A DNA stretch of 64,000 nt from the NCBI GenBank assembly GCA_963758525.1, contig CAVWVQ010000003.1:3968001-4032000 (forward strand). Direction: 5' to 3'. This document shows positions 7,985-23,300 of this stretch, one piece after another. The translations under genes were made by a program, and so were the position numbers. Within the stretch, counting starts at the first letter, position 1. Every line of letters begins with the position of its first letter. Under the pieces are notes generated by a model, which was not told the DNA's origin, ran no database searches, and saw only the letters and a program-made list of their open reading frames with translations. The DNA is from an uncultured Phycisphaerales bacterium. Its GTDB lineage: Bacteria > Planctomycetota > Phycisphaerae > Tepidisphaerales > Tepidisphaeraceae.

Positions 7985-8056
7985 GAAGGTAAGCGGCAGC
8001 AAAACGGGGGTGGAGAGCTGACATGGCTGATGACCTGATCACCGCTTTTGCTCACC
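7985..8056. repeat. Conserved hairpin element, copy A
   Basis: aaggtaagcggcagcaaaa..gggtggag.gctgacat..gctgatgac...cttttgctcaccg, shared with 9301 and 11352. Confidence 0.75.
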
Positions 8057-8141
8057 GTGCTCCGACTGAGAAGAATCGAACGTATAAAATTGATTTGCTG
8101 CGCACTCCTGTCAGAATAGCCAGGAGTACGTGAGGGGCCAT

Positions 8142-8888
8142 ATGGACAGCAATCCGGTCGATGCGTTCCCGCCCGAAGTCATCGAGAAACTCGGCTTCTA
8201 CGTCTACCGCCTCATCGACCCGCGCAATGGGGAGACTTTCTACGTTGGGAAGGGAAAGGCCAACCGCGTCTTTCAGCACGCGCGGGCCGCCGTGAAACTT
8301 CTCGAAGAAGGCGACGAGACGACAAACAAGATCAAACAAATCCGCGAAATTCAGCAAGCCGGGCTTCAAGTGGGGCACGTCATCCATCGTCACGGTATGG
8401 ACGAGGCCACCGCCTTCCAGGTCGAAGCCGCTCTGATGGACGCCTACCCCGGCATCCATAATGATGCCAGTGGGATCGGTAGCGGGGACTACGGCTGCAT
8501 GCATGCTATCGAGGTCATCACCAAATATCGCGCCGACCCCGCCGAATTCCGCCACAAGGTGATACTAATTACCGTTAATCGAAGTCTTGAGGTCAAATCC
8601 CTTTACGACGCGACCCGCTTCGCCTGGAAGATCAGCCAGTCGAAGGCGAAGCAAGCCGAGGTGATTCTGCCCGTGGTGAAAGGGATCATTAAGGGCGCCT
8701 TCGTTGCAACAGAATGGTTGCCCGCGACGACCGAGAATTTTCCCGGCTGGCCGAACCATCCGGATCGCGTTGCCTTCAACGGACACGAAGCGCCTGAACC
8801 GATCGTAAGCCTTTACCTAAACAAACGCGTGCCGGAGAAATATCGTCAACAAGGCGCAGCGAATCCGATTCGCTATGCATTTCCATAA
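8142..8888 (+). CDS. LEM-3-like GIY-YIG nuclease domain protein
   Basis: FYVYRLIDPRNGETFYVGKGKANRVFQH, IHRHGMDE..AF.VEAAL and C-terminal ANPIRY. Confidence 0.85.
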   Translation: MDSNPVDAFPPEVIEKLGFYVYRLIDPRNGETFYVGKGKANRVFQHARAAVKLLEEGDETTNKIKQIREIQQAGLQVGHVIHRHGMDEATAFQVEAALMDAYPGIHNDASGIGSGDYGCMHAIEVITKYRADPAEFRHKVILITVNRSLEVKSLYDATRFAWKISQSKAKQAEVILPVVKGIIKGAFVATEWLPATTENFPGWPNHPDRVAFNGHEAPEPIVSLYLNKRVPEKYRQQGAANPIRYAFP

Positions 8889-8974
8889 CCCGTGCCGCCC
8901 AGGGACACGATAATGGGACGGACGGGGGACGAGAGACGAGAGACGAGACAGCTTTCAATTGGACGCGTCCCGGA

Positions 8975-9212
8975 CTCGTCCCGTTATTATTTTTCTGAGG
9001 CAAACCAGCGTGCAGTCATCACTTTTCACGCCAATCATACTCAGGAAGTACCTGGCGAATGGCGCGGGACGTGGGCCGTTGTCGACACGAAGACGGTGAT
9101 GGTGAAGACAAACAGACCCGGTGACTCGATCTTTACTTTCTCCCGTTCCAGGAGGGCCGTAATGGAAGAGAGTCACGACGGCAATAGCGTTTGGCGTCTG
9201 AAGGAGAATTGA
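8975..9212 (+). pseudogene. Probable C-terminal gene fragment, unknown family
   Basis: Protein-like open frame (YYFSEANQRAVITF...VWRLKEN*) whose 5' part runs into a palindromic element at 8908-8988. Confidence 0.3.
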
Positions 9213-9283
9213 ATTGCGCCAGAACTCCCTGATCTGCCAACTTCCTACGTCTCAAGGCGCTCACCGGAATGGATGAAGGACAC

Positions 9284-9365
9284 TAACGGGACGTCCCGTT
9301 AAAGGTAGGCGGTAGCAAAAAGGGGTGGAGGGCTGACATTCGCTGATGACCCCTTTTGCTCACCG
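9284..9365. repeat. Perfect palindrome TAACGGGACGTCCCGTTA followed by conserved hairpin element, copy B
   Basis: Stem agcaaaaaggggt / accccttttgct; same core as copies A and C. Confidence 0.75.
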
Positions 9366-9451
9366 GTGCCTTCTCAAGGATTCCACTCGTCGGAAGCCGC
9401 ACTCAATTTTACGCGAAACCCCCACTGGATGCGATAGAGCGCAATGACGAC

Positions 9452-11158
9452 TGTTAAGCCGCAGTAGAAATGTCCGGTTTTTAACCGCAATAGAACTGTC
9501 ACGTTCGGCTGGCCCTGCCGAAGGCCGGCGGGCGCTGCTTCGCCGTAGGCCTGGTCACCTTGTTATTCACGATCGGCTTCTTCACGCGCACCGGTTTCGG
9601 CTGCTCGGGCAGCTCGCGGTAGGCCAGTCGTGTTCGAACGTCCTGTAGTTGAATCGTGCCGTCCCAGGTGCCGCACCGTCACGCGCCGTCCCGCCAGTTG
9701 CAGGCGTTCGTGGGCCCGGTCGATCTGGAACCAGCGGCTCTCGTAACGCACGCACCAGTCCTGGCCCACCACCCGTTCCTCTGCAAAACACAGCACCTCC
9801 CTCAACTTCACGCCCCGCGCCAGTCGTCGGTGCGCGTCGGCCCTGCGCCGCGCCGCTACGACCTGCCTCGCGTTCATCTTCGGCAGGAAGTCCTCTTTCA
9901 GGAACGTGTTCCCCGCCTCCATCGTGCTGATGCCCGCGAGCCGCATTTCTTTGACCAGCCGATCCTGCATCGTGCGGTTTTGTCGCTCGACGCGCCCTTT
10001 GGCCTGCGGCGAGTGCGCCTTGATCAGCGTCACCCCCAGTTCCTTCATCGCCCGCCCGAACTGCGTGAGGGGCACTTCGCCCGCCAGTTCCTCCGCCGTC
10101 GTCACCGGGCGGTCCGACCGGTAGATGCTGTCGCGGTCGACGTACACGCTCCGCGGCACACCGTACAACTCGATCCATTCCCCGAACGACTCGAAGGCCG
10201 CCACGGTCGTCTCCTCCTTGAAGAACTTCGCGTGGGTCCGGCTGGTGGCGTCGTCCACCAAGTCCATCAGTACGCACTTGGGACCCCGGCCCTCGAACCA
10301 GTCGTGCGGCGACCCGTCCATCTGCACCATTTCGCCGAAGCACGCCCGACGTTCGCGGCGGCTGCGGTGCTTGCGCCCCGGCGCAGGCGCGTCCACACGC
10401 CCGCCTCCTTCAGAAGCCGCGTCAGCGTGTCCGCGCTAACCGCCAGGCCGTCCTCGGCCAGCTTCTCGCTGGCATGCGTCGGCCCGAAATCCGCGTAACG
10501 CGCCTGGTGGCGATTGACGATCTGCTGGCGTTTGGCCTCATCGATTCGGCGGTTCGACGCCCGGCCACGCGACCGATGTACCAGGCCCGCGTCCTTTTCC
10601 GCCAGGAACCGCTTGTGGATCCGCCGCGCCTGTCGCTCGGACAAGTTCAGCCATTGCGCCGCCCGAACCAGCGTGATCTCCCCTCGCTTCACCCGACCAA
10701 AAACCTCCAGCCGCAGCCGCTCGTTGCGGCTCATGCTCAATGCTTTCATCCGAGCCGTTTACAGCCAAACCGAGCGCGTCGCCTCAACCCGGCCTGCACG
10801 CGACCCAGCAAGGCCGCCGTCAGCTTGACCTTGAGCCGCCCGGGGAACGAGGATGTCTCTGCCGCCTGGAGGATAGGGCTCCGCAGGAGTGCGACCCGAG
10901 CGCCAGTCGGTTGCCATACGGCAATGGATCGGGCGGACCTGCTCCGCCCGATCCCGCCGCATCCAACCTGCCGGCGGCACCAAAGCGCAAAACTCCGGGG
11001 TTTGGGGCAGAGCCCCAAGAAGCGTTTCAGTCTTCTTCCTTACCTCTTCCATCCACGTGACAAAGCAAGCAACCGACAAAATAGCGCATCCACTGCGAAC
11101 CGGGAAACCGGACATTTCTATTGCGGCTAAGGGGTGACATTTCTATTGCGGCACAACA
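9452..11158 (-). mobile_element. IS1202-family (formerly ISNCY) insertion sequence with a 16-bp target-site duplication
   Basis: Ends TGTT...AACA, each carrying two sub-terminal copies of GCCGCAATAGAAATGTC-like repeats; flanking direct repeat AGAGCGCAATGACGAC at 9436-9451 and 11159-11174. Confidence 0.9.
9499..10749 (-). CDS. DDE transposase (IS1202/ISNCY type), split by apparent frameshifts near 10390 and 9660
   Basis: N-terminal HTH (LSERQARR, GLVHRSRGRASN, DFGPTHASEKL) and catalytic core QMDGSPHDW, VDDATS, YVDRDS, SPQAKGRVER..RTMQDRL. Confidence 0.88.
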
Positions 11159-11318
11159 AGAGCGCAATGACGACAGTGTCATCGCAGAATTGATTGAATG
11201 TGACGCGAACTTCCCAGGGACCACGCAATTGCTCGACAGCGGGGCTCGGCGGGGTCCGTGACGGTTTCGGCGCGGCATTTGCGTCATGCCACGATCTTAG
11301 TCACGCAGGGAGGACACG

Positions 11319-11410
11319 AACGGGGCGCGTCCCGTTATCTCCGTCCGGAGTAAAGGTAAGCGGCAGCAAAGCGGGGATGGAGGGCCGTCATTTAGCTGAT
11401 GGCTTTTTTT
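11319..11410. repeat. Palindrome plus conserved hairpin element, copy C (more diverged)
   Basis: aacggggcgcgtcccgtt followed by aaaggtaagcggcagcaaagcggggatggagggc...gctgatggc. Confidence 0.65.
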
Positions 11411-11545
11411 ACTGACTACTTTCATGGCCGCTTGACTCGCTCGGGGCCGAGGTGGCTCGCTATACCTTCCTCGCATGAAACTTTGATTCACTGCACCTCG
11501 CCGGCGTCGCCGCGTACGACGGCCCGCTTTCCTCGCCCGAAGCTT

Positions 11546-12724
11546 TTACGAGCCGACCTTCGCCATCGTAGATACAGGTTCAATGGTGGCGCGCATGCCG
11601 TCCGCTCCCGCGAAGACACCGTCGGCAATTCGCCGCAAGTCGTAGGTGCCAACTTCGCATGTCACCGTGAGCAGCGTGTCATTTAGCGTGCATACGAAGT
11701 TTCCCTCGGCATAGCTCCCATAATCGCCTTCACGTTGAAGAATAAGGTATGAAGTACAGAGACCGCTGGGGAAGCCGGAGAGGGCGATTATGAAACCATC
11801 TTTGCGCTCGTACCGAGTCGCTAAACAATCCAAAAAACCGTTCGTATAGTTGGCGATAACACTTGCAAAATAGGCCAGAGTATCCACGGCGTCCGCCGCA
11901 AACGGTTGTTCTTGGGCTGATGTTACGATAACCACGCCCGCTCGCTCGACTGTGCAGGGGCGCTTAATGTGCGAGAAGACAAACTTTTCGGGAGGGCTAT
12001 CGCACGGCCTCTCCTGTTCTGACGGCTTGAGAAGTTGCCGGCAATTGTCGACGCTCTGCTCGAAGCATGACTTCGAGGCAAAACAATAAGCGGCAAGTTC
12101 GTTGACGTCAGTTGTTCCGATTCTCTTAGGGAGTCCTTCCGTGATTCCTGACGCGTAATTGAGCTGAAGAGTCCCGCTCTTGCAGCCGAATTCGTTTAGC
12201 CTGCGAAACCCATTGAGGAACCACACCTGAATCGAGAACTGGCCCGACTCAACGCCCAAAATCAGCTGAATGCTCTCCTGAAGCTTAGCGATGATCGGTT
12301 TCAGTCCGTCCGCAAAGAGGGTTTCCATATCCACATCGGCGAGCGCGCGCACATTATCGCACTTGCGTGCGTTCAGAATATCGAACAACGACCGGACCAA
12401 GCGATATGACTCCGATCGGCGGCGAATCTCGCGATTACAGGCATTGAGGCGATCCGTCATTTCGACCGCCTCGGCGAGGGCAAGTGCGGGGGACGCGACC
12501 TGTTGCGCCACTAGGTAAAGCGCGAGGAACAAATGGACGGTCCCGAGAACGATCAGACACCAACCAGCTCCGGCGCTCGGCGGGGTGGCGGTCCACTTGT
12601 TGACCAGAACTGCTTCAAGGATTGGGAACAGCGCGGTACTCAGCACCAGCAGCACGACGTTCAAGGCTTTAGAGACAACGAGCTGTTGTTTCAGATGGTC
12701 CCAATAGATTGTCTGTTTACGCAT
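11546..12724 (-). CDS. Hypothetical membrane protein: two N-terminal TM helices, coiled coil and possible GAF-like domain
   Basis: 392-aa ORF with two hydrophobic segments; GVVIVTS...PF...VDTLAYFASVIA resembles a GAF C-terminal strand/helix. Confidence 0.65.
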   Translation of the reverse strand: MRKQTIYWDHLKQQLVVSKALNVVLLVLSTALFPILEAVLVNKWTATPPSAGAGWCLIVLGTVHLFLALYLVAQQVASPALALAEAVEMTDRLNACNREIRRRSESYRLVRSLFDILNARKCDNVRALADVDMETLFADGLKPIIAKLQESIQLILGVESGQFSIQVWFLNGFRRLNEFGCKSGTLQLNYASGITEGLPKRIGTTDVNELAAYCFASKSCFEQSVDNCRQLLKPSEQERPCDSPPEKFVFSHIKRPCTVERAGVVIVTSAQEQPFAADAVDTLAYFASVIANYTNGFLDCLATRYERKDGFIIALSGFPSGLCTSYLILQREGDYGSYAEGNFVCTLNDTLLTVTCEVGTYDLRRIADGVFAGADGMRATIEPVSTMAKVGS

Positions 12725-12789
12725 TAGGTGACCACATTATGTTACGCGGGACTCCAGCGATTGGTGGCGGCACCACAACGATCAACAGT

Positions 12790-13045
12790 CGCGTACGGCA
12801 ACTGGCGTACCTCTGCGCCAGTCAGACATTGGACCATGGACGCGGCCGATACATTGCGTCTGCCCGTGATAGTGAAGGACTCGGACAAGCTCTTCACGTT
12901 CTGCGCGTGAATCGCGTGGAACCGACCAACGACCACTCCGAACGTTCGCTGCGTTTCCTGGCGATCATGCGCAAGATCCGCAGCGGCATCTTTAGTCGCA
13001 AAGCCAGCGGATCCCACAGTGTGCCCGCGTCGCTACTGCCGCATC
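12790..13045 (+). pseudogene. IS66-family transposase C-terminal remnant
   Basis: LFTF / VEPTNDHSERSLRFLAIMRKI resembles the IS66 TnpC motif EPTNNxAERxLR..V..RK; frameshifted, no N-terminus. Confidence 0.7.
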
Positions 13046-13058
13046 AATGGCTTGAACT

Positions 13059-14405
13059 TTACGGGGTGGGAATAGCCGAAAGTTCCTTTCGAATTTGTTC
13101 GCCCGCTGCCTGAATTCCATTCGTGATGTCGATGTAGATGATTCCCTTCAGGTCTGACGGAATTTCGGTTTTCCCCTTGTGAAGAAGAATCACCCGACCA
13201 GAACGCCGACCAAGCATCCCATAAAAATAACCGAGTTCGAAGATAACGTTCTGGCGCGTGCGCTCGATTCGCGCCTTGTCACTCGTGCCGCCAACGTCGT
13301 CCGGCGTCACCAGCACGAAGGCCACGTCGATGTCTGAGGCGTATTCCTCGAATTTTTCGATAATGGTGCGCCCTGCGCTCGCCTGCTGATCAAGAATGAT
13401 CGGCTCCGGCATCTTCAAGACGTTCTGGAGATAATCCTTCAACCCGAGTTTTGCTGCTGGGTCGTGACCATGAACGATAAACGAACGGATTTTCTGAACC
13501 ATCAGAATTTTCCCTTTCTTTCGATATTGTAATGGCAGGATGGCCGGGGGATCAACATGCGCCAAACATGCTTGCCACCGCAGATCCGTTCTCAGCGCCA
13601 ACAGTACTGATGTCGCGGCTGTCTCCACGATTTCGAGGATGCCCGCTGCACGACACCTTTCGCGAATGACCTTGTACGAGAGGTCGTCACCGGCCGAAGG
13701 CACTGGGTGCGGCGATTCCAAGTACACCAAATCTGTCACGACCCCTGCGTCCAGTTCGTTAACAAAACTGGCAAAATATGACTCATTAATTACGGAATGC
13801 ATCCGGTTGCGCAGAACCGGATTCCGAGAACGAGGGACAAGCAATGGTAAGACATACGGGACGATGAACGCCTTGTCATTCAATCGTTCCGGGACCGCCG
13901 CCCACCGTTTTTCAAGGTCTTTCGGGATCGCGATCTTAACGCCGTCGAGTAGGCTGGCAACTCCCCGCCCCTTCTCAAGTCTTGCAATCCAATCTTTCTT
14001 GATGTCGTTAGTTGCGCTCGCTCGCCGTGTACGAAATGGCGGTATGTGCCCTCCCCGAAAACCTTTGTACGCGCGCGATTGATTCGACCCGCTGCGGTAT
14101 TGACTCAGTTTCTCATAACGAAATTCCTCCAGGCTACTACCGCTCCCCACGAGCCGGATCAAGCCCATCTCGTACACCGCCTGAAGTTCGTCCAGTATCA
14201 TTCGGCAATCTGCCGATTCGAGATAGGATGCGGCGGGCACAAGAACTTCCTCCGCAGCGAGAACAGCGAAGCGCGTGGCGAGTCTACACTCTCGAACGAG
14301 CGCCCCGCCGATCTGATCTGCCGACTTCATCTCTAAGAAATGGAGATCGAAGAAGTGAAGAAACAGTCGCGGAATCAGCCGCATTGGGGCGTTTCCGAGC
14401 GTCAT
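13059..14405 (-). CDS. Unknown N-terminal domain fused to a Cap12/Pycsar-type TIR (predicted nucleotide-binding TIR-like) domain
   Basis: C-terminal FIVHGHD, TIIEKFE, AFVLVTPDD, RQNVIFELGYF and EIPSDLKG are hallmark motifs of this TIR family. Confidence 0.88.
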   Translation of the reverse strand: MTLGNAPMRLIPRLFLHFFDLHFLEMKSADQIGGALVRECRLATRFAVLAAEEVLVPAASYLESADCRMILDELQAVYEMGLIRLVGSGSSLEEFRYEKLSQYRSGSNQSRAYKGFRGGHIPPFRTRRASATNDIKKDWIARLEKGRGVASLLDGVKIAIPKDLEKRWAAVPERLNDKAFIVPYVLPLLVPRSRNPVLRNRMHSVINESYFASFVNELDAGVVTDLVYLESPHPVPSAGDDLSYKVIRERCRAAGILEIVETAATSVLLALRTDLRWQACLAHVDPPAILPLQYRKKGKILMVQKIRSFIVHGHDPAAKLGLKDYLQNVLKMPEPIILDQQASAGRTIIEKFEEYASDIDVAFVLVTPDDVGGTSDKARIERTRQNVIFELGYFYGMLGRRSGRVILLHKGKTEIPSDLKGIIYIDITNGIQAAGEQIRKELSAIPTP

Positions 14406-14408
14406 GAT

Positions 14409-14918
14409 CTAACTAAAAAGAAGCAGTTGCGCGTCCTCGTGCTTACAAAACGCTCGAAAATCTCCGACCAACTTAGAGAACTCTTGGCAAAGCGGAATTG
14501 CTGCCCACGCCTGAAGTTCGTCCTCAAACGCTTCAGGCATGTCCTGGTAGAGATAAATACGCTTTGACTGAGCGAATGCGACAGCGATCTCCGCAAAGGT
14601 ATTGGGACCAACGTAATTCCTGATATCGTATTTGTCGCAATTAATGGCGACAACAGCAAATGTGGACGGGTGTCGAATTTTGCGCAAGTATTGATAGGAG
14701 ACTTTCCGCTTGAACAGCCGAAACTCTTCCGGCGTCAGAGAATGCTTGATGTGATCTTCCGCAACCGGGACGACTGTTGGGATACCTGAACGCTGGAGGA
14801 TTTTCTGAATGCGCAGCATTTCGCCGTATGCGCTCATGCTGCCGCAGAGCACAACACGCCACTGCATCCGCTGGCGGCCGATCCTGTTCTGCGGTTTAGT
14901 CGTTTTTGAATCGCCCAT
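14409..14918 (-). CDS. Nucleoside 2-deoxyribosyltransferase-like (flavodoxin/TIR-related fold) protein; alternative start 14867
   Basis: RVVLCGSM, YLRKI, AVVAIN..K...NYVGPNTFAEIAVAFAQSKRIYL; fits the NDT-type G..T..E...A motif. Confidence 0.7.
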   Translation of the reverse strand: MGDSKTTKPQNRIGRQRMQWRVVLCGSMSAYGEMLRIQKILQRSGIPTVVPVAEDHIKHSLTPEEFRLFKRKVSYQYLRKIRHPSTFAVVAINCDKYDIRNYVGPNTFAEIAVAFAQSKRIYLYQDMPEAFEDELQAWAAIPLCQEFSKLVGDFRAFCKHEDAQLLLFS

Positions 14919-15396
14919 GCAGCAAATCTTCCTCGGCCATTGAGTATTCGTCCGATCTTGCCTCAAAAATTCGCGTCAGTTTAACGGTGCCATCTGTAAT
15001 CTGACGCGCCAGGGCTTCAGCAGATACGATGCACGAATCAGGTACGGCGACCGGTAGGTCTGCTGGCTGATTCTCGAAAAAAATTGGCCGACCACACTGA
15101 ATGATGCGACCAACCTCGTAACACGTCGTTCGACCGATGTAACGTTCCGGCGAGACGACATACACCAAGTCGGAGCGGAGAATTCGGTGCAACGCAATCG
15201 TCTGGACCATCGGGTCATCTGCATGCGGAGGGTCAGACCGAAATCGAACGAAATCGATTCCCGGCTCGATAATTTCATCGCCCTGCGGCGAAGTGATCTC
15301 CATTGCGGCGTCGCGAAACACCTCTCGTGCGCGGCTGACTTGCGCGAGGTGTTGCTTAAAGCTCCCGATAATTGCAATTGTCTTGGGCCTTGGCAT
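14896..15396 (-). CDS. Nucleoside 2-deoxyribosyltransferase-like protein
   Basis: TIAIIGSFK, HRILRSDLVYVV and YIGRTTCYEVGRI...RPIFF; ATG at 15396 with a GGAAG RBS-like sequence. Confidence 0.7.
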   Translation of the reverse strand: MPRPKTIAIIGSFKQHLAQVSRAREVFRDAAMEITSPQGDEIIEPGIDFVRFRSDPPHADDPMVQTIALHRILRSDLVYVVSPERYIGRTTCYEVGRIIQCGRPIFFENQPADLPVAVPDSCIVSAEALARQITDGTVKLTRIFEARSDEYSMAEEDLLHGRFKND

Positions 15397-16302
15397 ATCA
15401 CTTCCATCCAAACGGAGCCAGATTTTACTGTGGCTCGGGCCACAGGGCCAAATTGGGGCGTACATGTACTGTACACTGCGGGTCCGCCCGTCAAATGATC
15501 CGTCTGCCGCCACGTCACTGAAATTGAGACATGGTCGGACCGGCGTCCTGCGGCATGATCGCACCCAATCGTCCAGTGGGGTTCGCATCTACGTCATACA
15601 ATCGCTGGCGTTCCTCCATTTCCTCCGCGACGTCGGTCTTTCGATCTTCAAAAGCCGGAAAAGCGACATCACTTGGACATCACTGATTTCTCGGTGTCGC
15701 CCTTTGCCCGCTTCCTGGTCCGCGCGGTGTGAACTTCAAGCCTGGGCAGCCCGTGGCTAAAGTCGCGTTCAGAGACCGACGACCGGTTCGACAACCTCAC
15801 CGCGGGCCTGTTCGACAAACTCACTGCAGGAATTCGCTCGGCTCCGTGCTGACGCGATGTTGATATTCCCCGGCGATCCCCTTTCAGTTCGCGCAGCTCG
15901 ACACGACCTCATTCACGGACCGTTGAGCGTCGCCAATCGCTCGAAGCCATCCGCGGAGGTCTTTGCGAGTTGTCCATTGCAGCCCGTGGTAAAAGTTCCC
16001 GGCATGCCGGGAATGCTTACAGCTTCGGGCCGGGCTCTACGTTGTCGGGACTTGCCCGTCCCGGCATGACTGCTGCGCCTCGACGCCTTGATCCCGGCCC
16101 GAATCCGCGGCGCACCGGCGCGCGGGACATTTACCAAGGGCTGCTGGGCCCCTCGTCAATTCCCCAGAGAAACAGGCAGTCCCAGCGTGCATTGAGCCGC
16201 TCGATGGCGGCCATCAGGACCACGCCGCCGTAGCCGAGGAAGAAAATGTGGTCGGCGATCGCTGCGAGATCCAGATGCCGTGAAGAAGCAATCCGAAGAG
16301 AC

Positions 16303-16424
16303 GGTTGCCACAGATGAAGATGATGAACAGATAAATCCGGGGAAACGCGCGATCGCGTTCACTTCATACTTCTCAAACCGACTCTGAATTTATCTGTGTC
16401 CATCTGACTTTGCATCTGTGGCAA
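16303..16424. repeat. Imperfect inverted repeat (GTTGCCACAGATG ... CATCTGTGGCAAC)
   Basis: The terminal 13-mers are exact reverse complements; the inner arms acagataaat / atttatctgt also pair. Confidence 0.8.
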
Positions 16425-16634
16425 CATTCTTTGATTTGAGCATTCCTTGTCTGCAGTCGCTCGCTTCGTTCTGCATCATGATCGACTTTTCACTCAGGTC
16501 CACGCCCCGCAAGCGAGGCGGCTAAAGGAGACGGACTGCTCCGCAGCCAACGAGGCATAATCAGCGTCCGACCTGCCTGCGGCACTGGATTTTTTCGATC
16601 GATTGCAAGACCATCGGTGACACGGAGGTTCACA

Positions 16635-17189
16635 ATGCCCTTCTACAACTTTTACGGGGAATTTGGCGACGGAGATGATGACGGCAACAGCGAGTCAACA
16701 TCGCCCGGCTCATTTGAATATAAGGGTGCAACTGCCCAATTCAACGCTGACGATCTGAAGGGCGTCCCCGCCGTTGCCCTGGGAATGGTCTTGGCCGCTG
16801 GCATCGCAGAGATGCGGGTTCTCTACGACGGCGGAAGCGATGAGGGGTTCGCCCATGCCGACGACATGTGGATCAATGGTGACCGAAAAGTCGTCGATGA
16901 GATATGTGAGATGCTGGCTTCGCCGGCGAACGTTGATGCGATACGAGCCGCCGCAACCGAACCAGACGGTTCCCAATGGGGCGACGCGATCGCGCATTAC
17001 CGCAAGAAGGAACCTCGCAAGGTCGTCGCCGACGCCCTCGATGAGCTGGCCCACGAGATCGCATCGCAACTGCTCGGCTCCGGTTATGGCACGGGCGAGT
17101 ACGAGTTGTACGGCGCCGTGATGGTTGTCTTCGAAACCGGCGAGATGATCGACGACGCCAACGCGGAACGGCCCCTCGATCGGATGTGA
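16635..17189 (+). CDS. Acidic hypothetical protein, DUF6878-like
   Basis: GGAGG RBS; AGIAEMRVLYDGGSDEG motif; lies directly upstream of the DUF6915-like gene. Confidence 0.55.
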   Translation: MPFYNFYGEFGDGDDDGNSESTSPGSFEYKGATAQFNADDLKGVPAVALGMVLAAGIAEMRVLYDGGSDEGFAHADDMWINGDRKVVDEICEMLASPANVDAIRAAATEPDGSQWGDAIAHYRKKEPRKVVADALDELAHEIASQLLGSGYGTGEYELYGAVMVVFETGEMIDDANAERPLDRM

Positions 17190-17193
17190 CTAC

Positions 17194-17631
17194 ATGGCGC
17201 ATCCGTGGCATCATGCCGTTCGCTCCGCCAAGCTCTTTGGGGGCTCTCCCGAAGATTATCTTGCGGTCCACAACTGGTTCGACGAATCGAAGGCGTTTGT
17301 GCCCGACATTCGGCATCGCGCACTACGGCATCATTCCGAGGGGATTTTCCTGTGCGAACGATTGCTGGGCATCACTCTGAAAAATTCCGCCGGTCGTGAG
17401 GTTCCGGTACGCCAGATCGGTGAACAACACGTCAAGGACGATCTCGGCTGGGTCCCAACCGCAAAAGATTGGCTCGTGCATCTGCGCGTTGAGCCCTGGA
17501 TGAGCCGAACACCGTTCAGGCCGTCGAGCGAAGAGGAGGATCAGGCTGCAAAGGATGCGGCAGCCATTCACGACGTGCGTTCGCAGCCAGGCGGCGTTGT
17601 CGTCCCGACTGAGGAAACTTCACGGAAATGA
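17194..17631 (+). CDS. DUF6915-like protein
   Basis: MAHPWHHA.SA..FGG..EDY...H.WFDESK, RHRALRHH.EGIF and VPVR.IGEQHV..DLG motifs. Confidence 0.8.
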   Translation: MAHPWHHAVRSAKLFGGSPEDYLAVHNWFDESKAFVPDIRHRALRHHSEGIFLCERLLGITLKNSAGREVPVRQIGEQHVKDDLGWVPTAKDWLVHLRVEPWMSRTPFRPSSEEEDQAAKDAAAIHDVRSQPGGVVVPTEETSRK

Positions 17632-17657
17632 CGTCGCGTGCCTGCGCGACGAATTCC

Positions 17658-17842
17658 GGAGACTATTGCCACAAAAGACACAAAGAGTGCAAAAGGGAAA
17701 AGCGGGAAAGTCTCGCTTTCTTCTTTTTTTGTGTTTTTTGAGTTGCTTCGTGGCAATTTCTCCTCGCGTGGCTGCTACCAAACAGAAAGAATGCAACCGC
17801 AGATGAACGCAAATGAACGCAGATCGAATGAAATCACTGAGA
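17658..17842. repeat. 185-bp direct repeat, copy 1
   Basis: Matches 18759-18943 with about 4 mismatches by eye. Confidence 0.95.
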
Positions 17843-17844
17843 CG

Positions 17845-18248
17845 ACAATTTGATATACCGCACCCCTGGAAATCGGTGACGTTTCGCGTGGCAAGCGTCG
17901 CTCCGACGGAACGTGCAATCGCGGCGATCTGGGCATCCATCTGGCTGATCGGTCGGCCCGCGTGACGGCGGTCAGTGGCGATGGTGGCAAATAGGCGATG
18001 GCCGCCGCGCTGTCGAAGTCTAGAATCCGCCCGGCAAAGTCCTGTGCGAGCATGCTGTCCAATGCGACCTTAAACTGCTGACGCCTTTGACCGAGTGGAA
18101 GAATTTCGATGCCGTATCGCAGTTCCGCTTCCGTGATGGCGCTGAGGAAGCAATCCGCCGGGGACCGCGCTGCGAGCCACGCTTCCACTTTCGCCTCGGG
18201 GGCAGGCTTCATGAGTTCTGAGATGACATTGGTGTCGAGCAGGATCAT
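17845..18248 (-). CDS. vapC: VapC/PIN toxin; frameshift near 17990 and 3' end apparently cut by the repeat
   Basis: MILLDTNVISELMK, SAITEAEL, then MDAQIAAIA...LATRNVTDF in another frame; the usual terminal NPW is absent. Confidence 0.8.
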
Positions 18249-18505
18249 TGACCAATGTCCAGCGGCTGGGGCATCGGGTCCCTGATCGGTTCGGCCAATT
18301 CAATGCCGCCCAGCGCACCAAAGCGGCTTCGAATGGATGCCGCAAGAGTCATGTTTGCGTTTCCGCGTGGCGGGGCGCTTTCCAAGCCCAAACCCGCCTT
18401 CATCGCTTCGACTGCAACTTGATCGACAGGGCGGTGTTGCTCGTCGGCTTTTCTCCGAAGCGCGGCGTCAAGGTCGGGCGGGATATCCCGAAGCGTCAAT
18501 GTCAT
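18245..18505 (-). CDS. FitA/VapB-like ribbon-helix-helix antitoxin
   Basis: MTLTLRDIPPDLDAALRRKA and LAASIRSRF..LGGIEL; ATGA overlap with vapC. Confidence 0.75.
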   Translation of the reverse strand: MTLTLRDIPPDLDAALRRKADEQHRPVDQVAVEAMKAGLGLESAPPRGNANMTLAASIRSRFGALGGIELAEPIRDPMPQPLDIGQ

Positions 18506-18758
18506 GGCGACATTTTATCCATCCCCGTGCGGGCCGGCAACGACAAGCAGAAGTGGCAACTCCAAGCATTCATGGCGTCATTGGGCTCTCGAGTGCACTC
18601 AAGACAGTTGTGTTGATATGAGTTGCCGCACGATTGGTGCCGCACCCGGCAGATTGACAGCGCGTACTGGCGCAACGTCATTTAGTGTAGCCGGCGAGCA
18701 TGCTCGCCGTGGTCCTTGTAGGGCGCGGGATGCGAAGCACACGTTGCAGCCACTTGGG

Positions 18759-18943
18759 GGAGACTATTGCCACAAAAGACACAAAAAGCGCAAAAGGGAA
18801 AAGCGGGAAAGTCTCGCTTTCTTCTTTTTTTGTGTTTTTTGAGTTGCTTCGTGGCAATTTCTCCTCGCGTGGCTGCTACCAAACAGAAGGAAGGCAACCG
18901 CAGATGAACGCAAATGAACGCAGATCGAATGAAATCACTGAGA
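18759..18943. repeat. 185-bp direct repeat, copy 2
   Basis: Matches 17658-17842. Confidence 0.95.
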
Positions 18944-18981
18944 AGATCATGGATGTTAAACGCATCGTACGAAGTCTTTGA
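18904..18981 (+). pseudogene. Possible internally deleted GxxExxY-family gene
   Basis: MNANERRSNEITEKI (typical N-terminus) is joined to VKRIVRSL* (typical C-terminus), inside inverted arms ccgcagatgaacgc / gcgttcatcggcg. Confidence 0.5.
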
Positions 18982-19041
18982 TCAATCCGCGTTCATCGGC
19001 GTTTATCCGCGGTTCAATCTCTCTTCTGCTTTGATCCGCGG

Positions 19042-19326
19042 TCAAATTCTTCTCTTTGGATTGCGGGCGCAGCCAGCGCCGCGAAATCCGCGGTTCATGG
19101 CCTCAAACAGCTTCTGCAGCTCTTCCAGATCGTCATAGCTGGACTTTGAGTAATCCCGCAGTCGGGTGCCGGGGACGAATGGAGTGGCGTCGAGGAGTTG
19201 GTCGAGCCGGATGGCTTGCTCGGGGGTGAGCCGGCGCGGGTCGAAACGCTCCTTCGGCGGGACGCCGCGGACCTGGGCGGCAAGAGTTCTCTCGGCTTTG
19301 TGCAGACGATGTTGCGATGAGGGCAT
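19042..19326 (-). CDS. Hypothetical protein
   Basis: ORF with AAGGAG RBS, co-oriented with the upstream HTH gene. Confidence 0.55.
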   Translation of the reverse strand: MPSSQHRLHKAERTLAAQVRGVPPKERFDPRRLTPEQAIRLDQLLDATPFVPGTRLRDYSKSSYDDLEELQKLFEAMNRGFRGAGCARNPKRRI

Positions 19327-19356
19327 GACCAAAATCTCCTTTGAGGGTGTGCGGGT

Positions 19357-19791
19357 TCACGCGGAAGCGTTTGCGTCCTTCAACTGTTTGGCGATGGCGG
19401 CCTGGCCGGCCTCGATGGCTTCGAAGCGGCCGGTGACTTCGGTGAGCTCGAACCCGCGGAGGCTGAATTGCAGGATCTTGCCGATGGCGCACAGCCGGAC
19501 CGAAGGCGGCAGCTCTGCATTGTTGGCGATGTTCCAGCTGATCTGGACGGCGCTGGGCGAGACGGCATTGGCAAACCGCACGGCCCGTTCCAGCACCTCC
19601 CGGCGGGCATGGCGATGGGCGAGCTGGAATGCCGGATCGTGGTGGATCCAGCGGTGGGCGGTGCGTGCCGAAATTCCGCACGCTTGGGCGGCCTTTGCGG
19701 TGGTCGGCTGAACCATCAGGGCCGCGATCAACTGTTCCTTCTTGCCTGCGCGGCTGCCCTGCGGTTTGGATGTATTGCCGGTGTCGCTCAC
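19357..19791 (-). CDS. HTH protein resembling phage terminase small-subunit-like/phage-derived proteins
   Basis: GTG start with AGGAGG RBS; LIAALM...T.AKAAQACGIS.RTAHRW..DPAF motif. Confidence 0.6.
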   Translation of the reverse strand: MSDTGNTSKPQGSRAGKKEQLIAALMVQPTTAKAAQACGISARTAHRWIHHDPAFQLAHRHARREVLERAVRFANAVSPSAVQISWNIANNAELPPSVRLCAIGKILQFSLRGFELTEVTGRFEAIEAGQAAIAKQLKDANASA

Positions 19792-19954
19792 GGTAACCTC
19801 CTGTGTTGCGGCGGACGATATGAAACATGGGACGGCCCGCTCAACGTTTACTTTTGTTCGGCAGCCGAAAAGCGGAATCGACGAGGAAGCTCGCACGAGC
19901 CCGCCAGTTACATAAAGATATGTATATTCATCTATTTTACTTGATTGGAAAAGT

Positions 19955-19994
19955 GTGCCATTTCGTGACATTTCGTGACATTTCGTGCCATTTC
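19955..19994. repeat. 10-bp tandem repeat (gtg(a/c)catttc) x4
   Basis: gtgccatttc gtgacatttc gtgacatttc gtgccatttc. Confidence 0.85.
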
Positions 19995-20047
19995 GGGGCG
20001 AGGGCTTCCTCCGAGCGGGCGTCATCCCTGCGTGAGCGGCGTTCTGA

Positions 20048-20160
20048 ATCCTTTAGCCGCCTCGCTCGCGAGGCGTGTCCAGCGGCGCGGATGCTCGCTT
20101 GGCGCGGTTCGTGAAAATGCGCCACTGGACACGCCTCGCGAGCGAGGCGGCTAAAGGATT
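20048..20160. repeat. REP-like long inverted repeat
   Basis: cctttagccgcctcgctcgcgaggcgtgtccag and ctggacacgcctcgcgagcgaggcggctaaagg are reverse complements. Confidence 0.9.
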
Positions 20161-20333
20161 TGGAGTGCTGCGCACGCAGGACTGAAGTGGGGCGTCGGAG
20201 AATCAAACTTTACCGCGCGGGGAGGAGCCGTAAGCTGCGACCGGCGCGGGGTGGCAAGGGTTGCGATGGACTTGCGCGGCTTCATGATGTGCGAGGCGCG
20301 TCGCCGCGGACGCCGGTTTGAAGAGGAAGCGCG

Positions 20334-23300
20334 TTGATTGACACGAAGCTGGAAGAGGTTCGCCGACGACTGCTGGACTTGAGCCGGAACAACCGGCTGC
20401 TGAACCATCGCGCGACGGGGCAGCGGACGTTGCAGATCGTCGATGAGCTGCCGGGGGAAATCTATCGCCGGCTGGTGGAGGAGGGGCGGACGCTGCAGTT
20501 TCTGTCGATGGAAGAGGCGCCGCCGGAAGCGAAGGGCGTTCTTGCGGAGAGCGCCCACGCGGCCGCCGACGCGCGCTCTTTCCCCTCCCCTGGTACGCCG
20601 GGGGAGGGTCAGGGTGGGGGCCGGATGGGAGGAGGTCAATCGGATATCAATGCTCCATTGGGAGCGGCGCCGCCCCCACCCCAGCCCTCCCCCGGCGTAC
20701 CAGGGGAGGGGGAAAATCGGCGGATGGAGGAAGGTGTATCGGATAACGATCCGCCTTTGGGAGCGACGCCGCCCCCACCCCAGCCCTCCCCCGGGGTACC
20801 AGGGGAGGGGGAAAATCGGCGGATGGAGGAAGGTGTATCGGATAACGATCCGCCTTTGGGAGCGGCGCCGCCCCCACCCCGGCCCTCCCTTGGGGTACCA
20901 GGGGAGGGGGAAGAGCCTGAGCTGGCGGCGCTGCCGCTGGCGCCTGTGGCGGATGCGGCGCCGGCGGAGAGGCATCGGGACAACAAGCTGCAGACTGCGC
21001 TCGAAGGGGAGAAGCTGCAGGCGCGGCTGGTCAATCTCGCGCGGGAAGCCAACAGCGCGATTCAGGAGCAAGGATGCAACATCCTGTATCTGACGTTTGG
21101 CGTGGTCGAATGGCGCGATGCCGAGTCGGCAAACGAAACGTCGCGCGCGCCGGTGATTTTTGTTCCTGTCGAGTTGAAGCGGAAGAGCGTCAACGCCCGC
21201 TACACGCTGCAGGCGTTTGATGACGACGTGGTGGGCAATCCGTCGCTGGTGGAACTGTGCCAGAATCAGTTCAACTTTGCGCTGCCGGCGTTTGACGCGG
21301 AGAAGGACGAAGCCGAGACGTATCTCAAAAACGTTGAGGAGGCCGTGGCGCACATGCCGGGGTGGAAGTTCACCTCGGAGATACACCTGGGTCTGTTCAG
21401 CTTTTCCAAGCTGCTGATGTATCGCGATCTGGACCCGCGCAATTGGCCGGCCGCGAATCATCTGGCGGACCACGCGCTGATTCAGAGCCTGACGCTCGGC
21501 ACCGCGCCGGAAGCGGGGGACGGCAACGGAATTCCCGATCCGCATCAGCTCGATGAGATGGTTGACCCCGCCGACTGCTTTCAGATCGTTGACGCGGATT
21601 CGAGCCAGCAGTCGGCAATTCTCGGAGCCAAACGCGGGCTGAGCATGGTGATCGACGGGCCGCCGGGAACCGGCAAGTCGCAGACGATCACCAACATCAT
21701 CGCCGAGTCGCTGGCGGCGGGGCAGACGGTTTTGTTCGTCTCGGAGAAGTCGGCGGCGCTGGAGGTGGTGAAACGACGGCTCACCGAAGCGGGGCTTGGC
21801 GATTTCGTGCTGGAGCTGCACAGCCGCCAGGCGAGCAAGCGCGCGGTTCTGGAGGAAATCAACCGCGTTCTGGAACGCGACGCGACGGCTCGACAAGTCA
21901 CGCTCGCGCCGGCGCAGGAGCTTCGAGCGACCCGCGACCGGCTCAACGCATATCACCGCGACCTGCACACGCCGCTGGGGGCGCTGGCGATTTCGCCGTT
22001 TCAAGCGATGTCGGCCGCGATCGCGCTGGTGAACGAGCCTGAGGCTCATTGCGATATTCCCGATGTGATGGGGTGGTCGGCTCAGCAGCTGACCGAGGCG
22101 GATCAAAAGCTGGCTGGTCTGGATCGATGCCTGGCGCGCGTGGGTGACGAGTCGGCGCATCCCTGGCGCGGCGTCTGGCTGCCATCCGCGGGATTGCGGG
22201 AAAAGCAGCGCATTGGGACAGCGTGCGAAGCGCTGGTGCGCGCGATCAAGGGAACACTCGAAGCGGGAAGCGCCGTGGCCTCGATGCTCGCGGTCAGCGC
22301 CCCTCGCACGCGCCTGGAATGCGAGCAGCAATGCGCCGCTGCCGGGGTGCTCGTCGCCGCGCCAGCGTCCGTCGCGGACGTTGTTATGCCGGGCGTCATT
22401 CCCGTCTCCGCGGCCGCCAGCACTACAGGCGTGGTCCCCAATCCCACGGCGTGGGACGCTCCCAACCCCGCCCTGACGGAATGGCTGCGAATCGGGGCGC
22501 GTCGTCAGCAACTGAAAAATCTCTGGCAGACTTTCTTCCTTCCCTCGGCCGAGGATCAGGAGTGGAGCGATCTGCTCAATCGCAGGCAAAAGCAGCAAGG
22601 GTCTCTTCTGAGGTTCTTCAGTTGGTCTTGGTACGCCGACGGGAAGCGGCTGAAGGCGTTCCGATTGTCAGCCGCGCCGCCCCCACCCCGACCCTCCCCC
22701 GGAGTACCAGGGGAGGGGGAAAGAGAGACATCGTCGGCCCCACCCCGGCCTTCCACTGGGGTGCCAGGGGAGAGGGAAAGAGCGGCACCCACGATGAGCG
22801 AGCTGGAGCTGTTGTCGGCGGTAATTGAAAGTCGAAGGCTGCGGAAAGAGCTTGAGAAGTGGGCCGGTGGATTCGCCCCGATGTTCGGCACGGAATGGCA
22901 TGGAATTGACAGTGATTGGCCATCATTGGAGCGATTTGCAGCTAGCGCGCTGGCCGTCCGAAACTTGCTTCTCACCCAGCGCGTTGATCCTGCCGCCGCG
23001 CGGCGATGGCTCGACGCTCCCGACCGCGGTCCGCTTGCCGCGTCGGGCAACTCCGCGCAGTCGGCGTTGGATCATCTGGCCGACTGCTGGCGCGAATGGC
23101 TCGCATCCATCGGCAGCGATGAGCAGCGCTGGCTCAAGACGGAATTCGCCTCAGCCGAGCTGGCGCCGATCGCGCATCGCCTGGCGGAACTTCCCGCGCA
23201 GATCGAGCGGCTCGACGAGTGGATCGACCTGCGGCGCTGCGTCACCGAATGCTCCAACACTTCGCTGCGCTCATATATCGAGTGGGCGCTGTTCGGCGAC

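Follow-up and report, generated by a model that had tools for sequence, protein, structure and literature searches.

A likely new anti-phage system built from two NDT-like proteins and an undescribed domain with exchangeable effectors

Results

Gene layout and composition of the locus

Within the window, the whole 64,000-nucleotide stretch of DNA analysed here, three neighbouring ORFs on the minus strand encode two small NDT-like proteins and a predicted fusion of a switch with an effector:

Gene 1, 14896-15396, minus strand: 166 aa, NDT-like protein A, with motif IGRTTCYEVG and putative catalytic E94 (codon 15115-15117)
Gene 2, 14409-14918, minus strand: 169 aa, NDT-fold protein B (predicted), with motif VGPNTFAEIA and putative catalytic E110 (codon 14589-14591)
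Gene 3, 13059-14405, minus strand: 448 aa, N-terminal domain plus TIR, a predicted switch-effector fusion
N-terminal alpha/beta domain of gene 3, 13542-14384, minus strand: residues 8-288 (~280 aa), the constant part and predicted switch
CAP12/Pycsar-type TIR domain of gene 3, 13122-13481, minus strand: residues 309-428, putative NADase effector with E390 (codon 13236-13238)

An earlier note on this DNA had described the genes as co-oriented, tightly packed and visibly less GC-rich than their flanks, and both the coordinates and the base composition bear this out. Gene 2 in its long form, over 100% of which the closest homologue (167 aa) aligns, shares 23 nt with gene 1, and a start at 14867 instead would leave a 28-nt gap; the spacing between genes 2 and 3 is 3 nt. 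The GC content of the trio is 53.1%, compared with 60.7% for the genome, a value undercut by only about 0.1% of equal-sized genome tiles, and the low-GC zone around it spans about 11 to 15 kb of the window. Neither promoter predictions (3 vs 1.5 +/- 1.3) nor terminator predictions (6 vs 3.8 +/- 2.3) exceeded those in shuffled sequence, and Rfam gave no match in 8000-20500 of the window. A downstream 392-aa ORF (11546-12724) was considered as a cassette member and rejected, because it has no homologue in the 80 loci described below.

PADLOC was run on 70 of the 75 ORFs of 185 aa or more in the window, with most ORFs <185 aa lying outside the scan; two of the remaining five were scanned by Pfam alone and three are unscanned shadow ORFs inside a helicase gene. 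Within this scope the only matches were the gene 3 TIR and, within 5 kb of the trio, PD-T4-3 and the DUF4011 helicase. In agreement with the earlier note, the scan of these ORFs gave no CD-NTase, PycC or ThsA.

The three genes form a conserved unit

Relatives were gathered by searching with the N-terminal domain of gene 3, rather than with gene 1 or gene 2, which yielded 80 loci; a first genome scan with a single sequence had returned zero. The full trio is present in 67 of the 80 loci and in 18 of 18 genome loci from five phyla, and so the co-occurrence elsewhere that had been set as a test is found. Contig ends interrupt 12 of the 13 incomplete loci, and the remaining one (L031) has a broken gene 1 next to a whole gene 2 and a whole gene 3 with an intact PNP effector. 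The gene order of the window recurs in 59 of the 67 complete loci, while the other 8 have gene 2 inverted behind gene 3. Each complete locus carries one gene 1 and one gene 2 drawn from two fixed families, the sole double count (L079) being a split gene, and the N-terminal domain is always accompanied by gene 2 where the flanks permit. The three genes are thus a conserved unit. Pairwise identities of the three parts correlate (r 0.39-0.69, against a maximum of 0.22 in 2000 shuffles), which shows shared descent only. In a quick gene 2 tree, the nearest relatives of the window's cassette, with a clade support of 99, carry a TIR (L001), an EAD7 domain (L002) and a nuclease-like domain (L019) in gene 3.

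Genes 1 and 2 resemble nucleoside deoxyribosyltransferases

Gene 1 matches the Pfam family PF05014 with an E of 0.006 and 17.1 bits, under the curated cut-off of 28.8, and gene 2 has no PF05014 match in Pfam. The two gene profiles match each other (E 3.6e-4), and judged from these sequences gene 1 is a distant paralogue of gene 2. The AlphaFold2 model of gene 2 (pLDDT 90.6) has as its best VIA-align match the deoxyribosyltransferase 7o62 (Z 13.8, rmsd 2.8, 127 aligned), and in the top six rows of this fold search NDTs and YtoQ are joined by a single unnamed conserved protein. ThsB 6lhy scores Z 10.3, vs 13.8 for the NDT, and the model therefore suggests a clade shared with ThsB and a different family. 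Gene 2 is accordingly predicted to adopt the flavodoxin-like NDT fold. For genes 1 and 2, no PADLOC match at E up to 1, no TIR or ThsB match in Pfam and no DUF4062 match at E up to 1 (Pfam) were obtained.

The catalytic Glu motifs noticed in the earlier reading are upheld along with the NDT-like fold: E94 of gene 1 is kept in 46 of 46 alignment rows and E110 of gene 2 in 58 of 58. In both proteins the putative nucleophile Glu lies on the helix after strand 3, as in the NDT/(d)NMP N-glycosidase superfamily, and E94 aligns, weakly (E 0.21), with the WELG-motif Glu of NDT 6evs; the Asp six residues ahead of that Glu in 6evs is Gly in genes 1 and 2. A GSF loop follows strand 1 in gene 1, gene 2 has a GSM loop, and strand 1 contains no Tyr in the alignment rows of either family. 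The strand-1 residue that we take, from a presumed register rather than an alignment, to correspond to the Tyr of NDT/DNPH1 is Ala in gene 1 and Val in gene 2. In those enzymes, this Tyr enforces 2'-deoxy specificity (available text of PMC11204291).

Two natural fusions join gene 1 to gene 2 (P0310 and P0311), and no fusion of gene 2 to the N-terminal domain of gene 3 occurs among the collected proteins or in a search for longer forms (7998 candidates scored). More distant relatives of genes 1 and 2 occur by themselves on plasmids (four) and phage contigs (two), so these families also serve other roles. A gene 1-like relative is fused to Nudix and an NrtR winged helix, a setting of NAD regulation, and phage gene 2 relatives occur in a setting of thymidylate metabolism and near a Tad3 Thoeris inhibitor. 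L090 is a weak viral match to gene 2. The search of phage records gave no relative of gene 1 or gene 2. Neither gene 1 nor the N-terminal domain had a relative in the viral contigs, the N-terminal domain had none in the plasmids, and gene 2 was not found in 400 other genomes in each of two groups.

Gene 3 joins an undescribed domain to exchangeable effectors

Residues 1-~290 of gene 3 have no match in Pfam, PADLOC, NCBIfam or PHROGs, in line with the earlier statement that this part is not STING, SAVED or cNMP-binding. At E up to 0.001, the domain forms about 650 clusters at 50% identity. Its model is confident (pLDDT 92.8). VIA-align searches peaked at Z 5.5 and 5.9, and the best matches, at only Z 5.0-5.9, fall in a range (Z under 8) frequent between unrelated models; they include cyclodipeptide synthases (AlbC; Z 5.9, rmsd 4.9, 151 aligned) and, at Z 5.0 (rmsd 4.3, 133 aligned), PIN AF1683. 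No Foldseek match in PDB or BFVD reached an E of 0.001 (best E 0.28), ESM Atlas gave no usable match, and PDB sequence searches with profiles of all three parts gave nothing significant. The ~280-aa domain is undescribed, with no family or clear fold match. Its near-invariant residues are H17, D20, E39, R45, S60, E63, Y103, Y113, W139 and Y210.

The C-terminal part of gene 3 was correctly recognised as a Cap12/Pycsar-type TIR with an intact NVIFELG motif: residues 309-428 match PF10137 (E 9e-33), and E390 is the Glu of this motif. Of 23 TIR-fused relatives, 22 keep the pattern N..[FY]E[LM]G and one is truncated. Matches to PADLOC PDC-S35 are confined to the TIR (protein 303-445, model from position 82-131 on), with no match of the whole model to gene 3. 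The fused TIR likely destroys NAD+, and TIRs of this type require filament assembly (PMC9402430, accessible part).

Other genomes carry the N-terminal domain attached to different effectors, the recurrence that the earlier note had proposed to look for. Among 218 domain-bearing proteins, the extensions fall into clusters of PNP (81, the commonest), a presumably restriction-nuclease-like group (35; assigned by its motif, with no Pfam match) and Cap12-TIR (23), followed by glycine-rich/helical tails (8+3), SEFIR/TIR_2 (6), PRTase-CE (4), HNH (3) and EAD7 (2). Single extensions include caspase, SIR2, DUF4365, alpha/beta hydrolase and EAD1, and 30 of the 218 proteins, many of them fragments, have none. 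The TIR is the putative effector of the window's cassette and, across the domain-bearing proteins, one payload of many. In L002, where the domain is fused to EAD7, the neighbouring gene encodes PNP-EAD7 and the two EADs are 49% identical, so that the effector there is apparently tethered rather than signalled; EAD-EAD coupling of effectors has been described (in the portion of PMC7159879 at hand).

A modelled complex docks the NDT-like pair on gene 3

Genes 1 and 2 are predicted to form a heterodimer, and in the complex model this pair docks on the N-terminal domain through gene 2 with a score of 0.82, against 0.01 for the best of 3 controls. In the calibration set, 116 of 157 solved complexes attained the score mark, as did 2 of 215 mismatched pairs; the trio, with its own alignments and three chains, lies outside this calibration, and the counts apply to it only roughly. 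The runs share at least 88% of contacts, with partner pLDDT of at least 85. Replacing gene 1 lowered the score to 0.00, which may reflect a modelling effect. A gene 3 segment (226-230, with Y228) lies over the gene 2 loop S27-M28-S29, and the top contact, D95 (gene 2)-R201 (gene 3), keeps the D-R pair in 31 of 40 loci, and the 9 remaining loci all lack the R, with the D changed as well in 6 of them. The modelled contacts did not stand out by mutual information (mean percentile 0.58, 25 pairs, 40 rows). Interface residues are less conserved than average in both gene 2 (0.47 vs 0.54) and the N-terminal domain (0.38 vs 0.47), and the conserved polar residues of the latter fall outside the interface. 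On the strength of the model, the three proteins probably form a physical complex.

Genomic context

Specific defence genes occur within 6 kb in 7 of the 18 genome loci (a raw count), 8 have no PADLOC neighbour and 3 have just generic kinase/ATPase matches, in a scan of 132 of 179 candidate neighbour ORFs. The cassette is inserted inside a BREX operon in L005. In L018 it adjoins a CBASS locus, a separate convergent operon that holds the only CD-NTase among the 18. The cassette was not found in 400 other genomes of its own phylum. PADLOC has no model for its core, and no known system matched it there, consistent with the novelty suggested earlier; the literature searched, which excluded Burroughs 2015 and Burroughs and Aravind 2020, holds no description of it.

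Discussion

Proposed mechanism and alternatives

Its effectors and neighbours indicate that the cassette very probably has a role in anti-phage defence, and we consider it a likely new anti-phage system. Our main reading, with a probability of about 0.5, is an abortive-infection switch in which the NDT-like pair, docked on gene 3, is triggered by a nucleotide. Genes 1 and 2 would pair and dock via gene 2 on the N-terminal domain, an infection-linked nucleotide would be bound or cleaved by the pair, the N-terminal domain would then cluster and switch on the fused TIR, and the active TIR would destroy NAD+ and kill the infected cell. The conserved polar residues of the N-terminal domain may form a pocket that takes the product directly. 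Both the nucleotide trigger and the clustering are steps that we infer. Solely from the settings of the stand-alone relatives, we guess that gene 1 would take NAD+/ADP-ribose as its input and gene 2 a pyrimidine deoxynucleotide. In a more specific and rather doubtful version, which would amount to a new class of immunity in bacteria, an N-glycosidase heterodimer would base-exchange a phage-derived (modified) pyrimidine deoxynucleotide with NAD+ and pass the signal to a docked new-fold receptor that polymerises any of a dozen killing domains.

The earlier note had the NDT-like pair make or process a signal sensed by the N-terminal domain. Trio co-occurrence, effector swapping and the NDT fold bear out other parts of its reading, whereas the docking model favours a physical switch over a free messenger. 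Signalling akin to Thoeris, in which genes 1 and 2 would make a diffusible molecule from NAD+ or a nucleotide and the N-terminal domain would be a new receptor that activates the effector, therefore seems unlikely. It would fit the invariance of both E94 and E110, an effector set similar to that of second-messenger systems and the many conserved polar residues beyond the modelled interface; moreover, DrHyd/NDT immune enzymes have been described as NADases or signal makers (PMC9503650, in part), and NDT-like sites and base exchange are described for some ThsB proteins (PMC11204291, in part). Against it stand the direct docking and the fixed complement of one gene 1 and one gene 2 per complete locus, when ThsB number varies across Thoeris loci (accessible text of 10.64898/2025.12.03.692087).

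Alternatively, the pair could restrain the effector as a guard or antitoxin, by binding or by a constant supply of an inhibitory nucleotide, until a phage protein releases it by attacking NDT/TIR-fold enzymes or draining this nucleotide. The one modelled complex is compatible with such restraint, as are the constant company of gene 2 and the phage-borne gene 2 relatives near Tad3, but L031 keeps an intact PNP effector despite its broken gene 1, and payloads such as TIR require assembly beyond mere release (PMC9402430, in part), so we give this arrangement a low probability. The modelled docking favours the pre-assembled nucleotide-gated switch over both a diffusible signal and a guard.

A complex of several toxins that a phage protein sets off, with the N-terminal domain as a degenerate PIN nuclease or HUP/CDPS-like ligase, or with the pair as NADase effectors, is improbable: the near-invariant H17, D20, E39 and E63, the weak fold matches and the activation of TIR-like DUF4062 NADases by phage portal (available text of 10.64898/2026.05.01.722283) speak for it, but such Z scores are frequent for unrelated models and a core that is already toxic would not need continual payload exchange. 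A nucleotide salvage or detoxification module, suggested by the NAD regulation and thymidylate settings of stand-alone relatives, is very improbable given the nuclease, caspase, SIR2 and TIR payloads, the rarity, the low GC and the defence neighbours.

If the nucleotide-gated switch is correct, the cassette would be a previously undescribed defence against phages, built around a ~280-aa switch domain, likewise undescribed, that can drive at least ten unrelated effector types, and NDT-fold enzymes would gain a regulatory role in a docked heterodimer rather than an effector role. New receptor domains in such systems tend to lead to new signal molecules. The small size of the cassette (2.3 kb), its natural TIR, PNP and nuclease versions and the residues named here make direct testing feasible.

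Comparison with known systems

Swarozyc (DUF4062) also places a small TIR/NDT-like domain in defence, judging from the part of its description available, and differs in that the trio has no DUF4062 match. NDT effectors occur in some retrons; here no reverse transcriptase was found in the scanned window or neighbour ORFs, and the trio contains no RT or RNA gene. Clover was rejected as a counterpart, since CloB is a Pol-beta nucleotidyltransferase (10.1101/2025.07.09.663793, accessible text), and a term search of the available text of PMC12839542, PMC13069673, PMC13434031 and PMC11350192 found no NDT system.

CBASS Cap12 (TIR-STING) and Pycsar PycTIR likewise fuse a PF10137 TIR with a catalytic Glu to a constant domain, and activation by assembly is the model for such TIRs (PMC9402430, in part); in contrast, no CD-NTase or PycC was found here and the fused domain is not STING, SAVED or cNMP-binding. 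With NDTs and (d)NMP N-glycosidases (PF05014; DNPH1, MilB, BcmB, YtoQ) the cassette shares the predicted gene 2 fold and the gene 1 Glu position, but genes 1 and 2 fall under the Pfam cut-off and are predicted to form a heterodimer, not a homo-oligomer. PUA-Calcineurin-CE-HAD (10.64898/2026.01.15.699771) and short prokaryotic Argonaute (PMC13434031), the latter with swappable effectors, are, in the text available, pre-assembled multi-protein complexes that polymerise on a nucleotide or nucleic-acid cue, which is the principle proposed here; no core domain in common with the cassette was found there.

Ternary NTPase conflict systems (PMC7159879, accessible part) likewise consist of three genes, have partners of TIR, PNPase, caspase, trypsin-like and EAD type, and show EAD-EAD coupling of a neighbour effector as in L002. 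The conserved cassette core, however, has no MoxR/STAND/GTPase match and its neighbours vary, and DrHyd is a variable fusion in those systems (same part of PMC7159879), whereas the cassette has two constant genes.

The likeness to Thoeris (types I-XI) lies in small TIR/NDT-clade enzymes that adjoin a cell-killing effector (10.64898/2025.12.03.692087; PMC11204291; available text), and type IV and some type II loci there contain two such enzymes. The words deoxyribosyltransferase, NDT, PNP and phosphorylase are absent from the main text of 10.64898/2025.12.03.692087, with Fig. 1C and Table S1 outside the comparison. The Thoeris receptors SLOG, Macro, DUF2270, SLATT and TPR-CMP hydrolase gave no match in gene 3 residues 1-290 (Pfam/PADLOC/NCBIfam/PHROGs). 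Unlike in Thoeris, genes 1 and 2 are not scored as TIR, with NDTs heading the gene 2 fold search, and represent two fixed families with natural fusions between them; the receptor candidate in gene 3 is not SLOG or Macro, the TIR is the payload, and the cassette is predicted to form a physical complex.

Organization of the cassette

The three open reading frames, their spacing, both glutamate motifs and the TIR motif matched the description in the earlier note when checked on the window sequence, and each gene is present in one copy in the host genome. The low GC content claimed for the trio was likewise confirmed (53.1% versus 60.7% for the genome), placing it within the lowest 0.1% of equal tiles. 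Pfam assigned residues 309-428 of gene 3 to the TIR family PF10137, matched gene 1 to deoxyribosyltransferases (NDT) below threshold (E 0.006), and gave no useful match for gene 2. In the proposed PADLOC check, no system matched the trio, the TIR part of gene 3 being the sole match. Neither a cyclase nor ThsA was detected among the window ORFs scanned, in agreement with the stated absence of CD-NTase, PycC and ThsA.

Cassette and neighbouring features in the window
8130-8888, +, PD-T4-3 homologue, GIY-YIG (PADLOC E 1e-103), 4.2 kb from the cassette
9563-10749, -, split transposase (HTH and integrase core)
11546-12724, -, 392-aa ORF, low GC, two hydrophobic N-terminal stretches
12709-13113, +, short stretch between gene 3 and the 392-aa ORF, no Pfam match
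13059-14405, -, gene 3, N-terminal domain (residues 8-288) and TIR
14409-14918, -, gene 2, NDT fold, putative catalytic E110
14896-15396, -, gene 1, NDT-like, putative catalytic E94
16635-17631, +, 184-aa gene without assigned family, adjoining DUF6915
17775-18248, -, partial PIN/VapC-like gene
20334-25732, +, DUF4011/Hhe-like (PDC-S37) helicase-nuclease, two overlapping ORFs (20334-23969, 23882-25732)

The helicase-nuclease gene is likely frameshifted, because it is split over two overlapping ORFs; its product carries repeated Pro/Gly-rich inserts (PPPQPSPGVPGEGE-like). The 392-aa ORF had no family match and no homologue among 80 related loci, and the stretch beside it resembles an IS66 transposase remnant.

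Conservation and genomic context

A motif-seeded scan yielded these 80 loci (18 from genomes and 62 from metagenomes, several being near-duplicates). Recurrence of the three-gene order, which the earlier note proposed to test, was evident, with genes 1 and 2 both beside gene 3 in 67 loci: 59 have the gene order of the window, and in eight an inverted gene 2 follows gene 3. At 12 of the 13 incomplete loci a contig end lies too near the gene to judge; in the other, L031, gene 1 is reduced to a remnant. The genome loci span Acidobacteriota, Pseudomonadota, Actinomycetota, Armatimonadota and Thermodesulfobacteriota. Trees of the three parts, each with 40 rows (the window plus a non-redundant 39 of 57 complete loci), share most clades, and the cassette has therefore been inherited whole. 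It is rare, with no match in 400 other genomes of its own phylum or in two further 400-genome samples.

Specific defence genes lie within 6 kb at seven of the 18 genome loci (a raw count): methyltransferases (L001), PD-Lambda-5 (L004), BREX, where pglZ and brxD flank the cassette (L005), KAP NTPase and PDC-S65 (L007), type IIG RM (L010), type I RM and SoFic (L017), and CBASS (L018). Three genome loci had generic matches only and eight had none, while two of four metagenome loci scanned had real defence matches (PDC-S59, SspH).

A domain with exchangeable payloads

The N-terminal domain of gene 3 is confidently modelled (pLDDT 92.8) as an alpha/beta core that bears a large helical insert, and for this fold fold searches returned background-level matches alone (cyclodipeptide synthases, PIN domains). 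Residues H17, D20, E39, R45, S60, E63, Y103, Y113, W139 and Y210 are conserved in about 90-99% of 218 rows. Residues 1-300 as query found 87 proteins, and a profile search found 650 clusters at 50% identity; beyond the best 150 listed, clusters may carry other partners. P0090, a distant form (25% identity), is fused to TIR_2.

Recurrence of the domain with swapped effectors had been proposed as a check, and clustering of the attached parts revealed many payload types among 218 domain-bearing proteins: nucleoside phosphorylase (PNP, 81), a cluster that we labelled restriction-nuclease-like from its motif (35), Cap12-type TIR (23), glycine-rich plus helical tail (8+3), N-terminal SEFIR/TIR_2 (6), PRTase-CE (4), HNH (3), EAD7 (2), and single cases including caspase, SIR2, DUF4365, alpha/beta hydrolase and EAD1. 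Thirty had no extension, many of them fragments, and EAD4 appeared once in a separate analysis. Three different payloads occur among the window's closest relatives. Loci L009, L044, L052-L055, L058 and L061, one of them from an actinomycete genome, combine an N-terminal payload (SEFIR/TIR_2 where scanned) with the arrangement in which an inverted gene 2 follows gene 3. Only in L002 does a neighbour gene have the same tail as the domain protein: its domain protein terminates in EAD7, and the convergently oriented gene encodes PNP-EAD7. In L017, L033 and L035-L042, the domain is followed by a glycine-rich AGQVGAQGP-type motif and a helical tail, for which Pfam gave no match and no neighbour gene had a counterpart; these tails may resemble amyloid signalling motifs. 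Because payloads sit at either end or are adaptor-tethered, we infer that the domain acts by drawing copies into proximity, an assembly that TIRs of gene 3's family require according to PMC9402430.

The NDT-like pair and its predicted complex

The NDT-type fold claimed for gene 2 was upheld by its predicted structure (pLDDT 90.6), whose best structural matches were deoxyribosyltransferases (Z 13.8), with DNPH1, BcmB, MilB and YtoQ also among the matches. Genes 1 and 2 align across the core (E 3.6e-4) and are fused in two proteins; E94 aligns, in a weak match, with the Glu of the NDT 6evs, and both E94 and E110 are invariant in family alignments. Stand-alone relatives lack the rest of the cassette at L082, L086, L087 and three other plasmid matches, so the two families are not confined to it. 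A Streptomyces plasmid (L082:4980-6119) encodes a protein that joins a gene 1 relative (45% identity) to Nudix and NrtR winged-helix domains, possibly forming an NAD regulator with a built-in glycosidase; NrtR senses ADP-ribose, according to PMC9503650. On two large low-GC phage contigs (L086:3917-4408, L087:3935-4408), a 37%-identical gene 2 relative neighbours dUTPase, HAD, ThyX and thymidine kinase genes, and a homologue of the Thoeris inhibitor Tad3 follows 2.5 kb downstream. Such company hints indirectly at the substrates of genes 1 and 2.

In a three-chain model with row-paired alignments, the domain docked onto the pair formed by genes 1 and 2 with a score of 0.82, compared with 0.01 for the best control. 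Among solved complexes 116 of 157 attained the score mark, as did two of 215 mismatched pairs, counts that are only rough for a three-chain job. At least 88% of contacts were common to runs, and partner pLDDT was at least 85. All confident contacts of the domain fall on gene 2 (the S27-M28-S29 loop against gene 3 residues 226-230, and D95 against R201), and the score was lost when gene 1 was replaced. The score is unlikely to reflect a memorised structure, because the searches revealed no solved relative of the domain. Covariation lent the modelled contacts no support, however, and the interface, which contains none of the ten near-invariant domain residues, is conserved less than average, which counts against the complex. 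The D95-R201 pair is retained in 31 of 40 loci.

Mechanism and relation to known systems

With a probability of about one half, we favor a mechanism in which the NDT pair and the domain would form a pre-assembled complex, binding or cleavage of a nucleotide by the pair would flip the domain into a clustered state, and clustering would activate the payload. A diffusible signal, as in the earlier proposal that the pair makes or processes a messenger sensed by gene 3, seems less likely, and so, to the same degree, does a guard role. No description of the cassette turned up in searches of largely open-access full-text literature. The cassette is a real, conserved and apparently undescribed candidate defence system. 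By the features compared, it does not qualify as Thoeris, CBASS, Pycsar, a retron, Swarozyc or an NTPase ternary system, but its proposed working mode resembles that of nucleotide-gated abortive systems.
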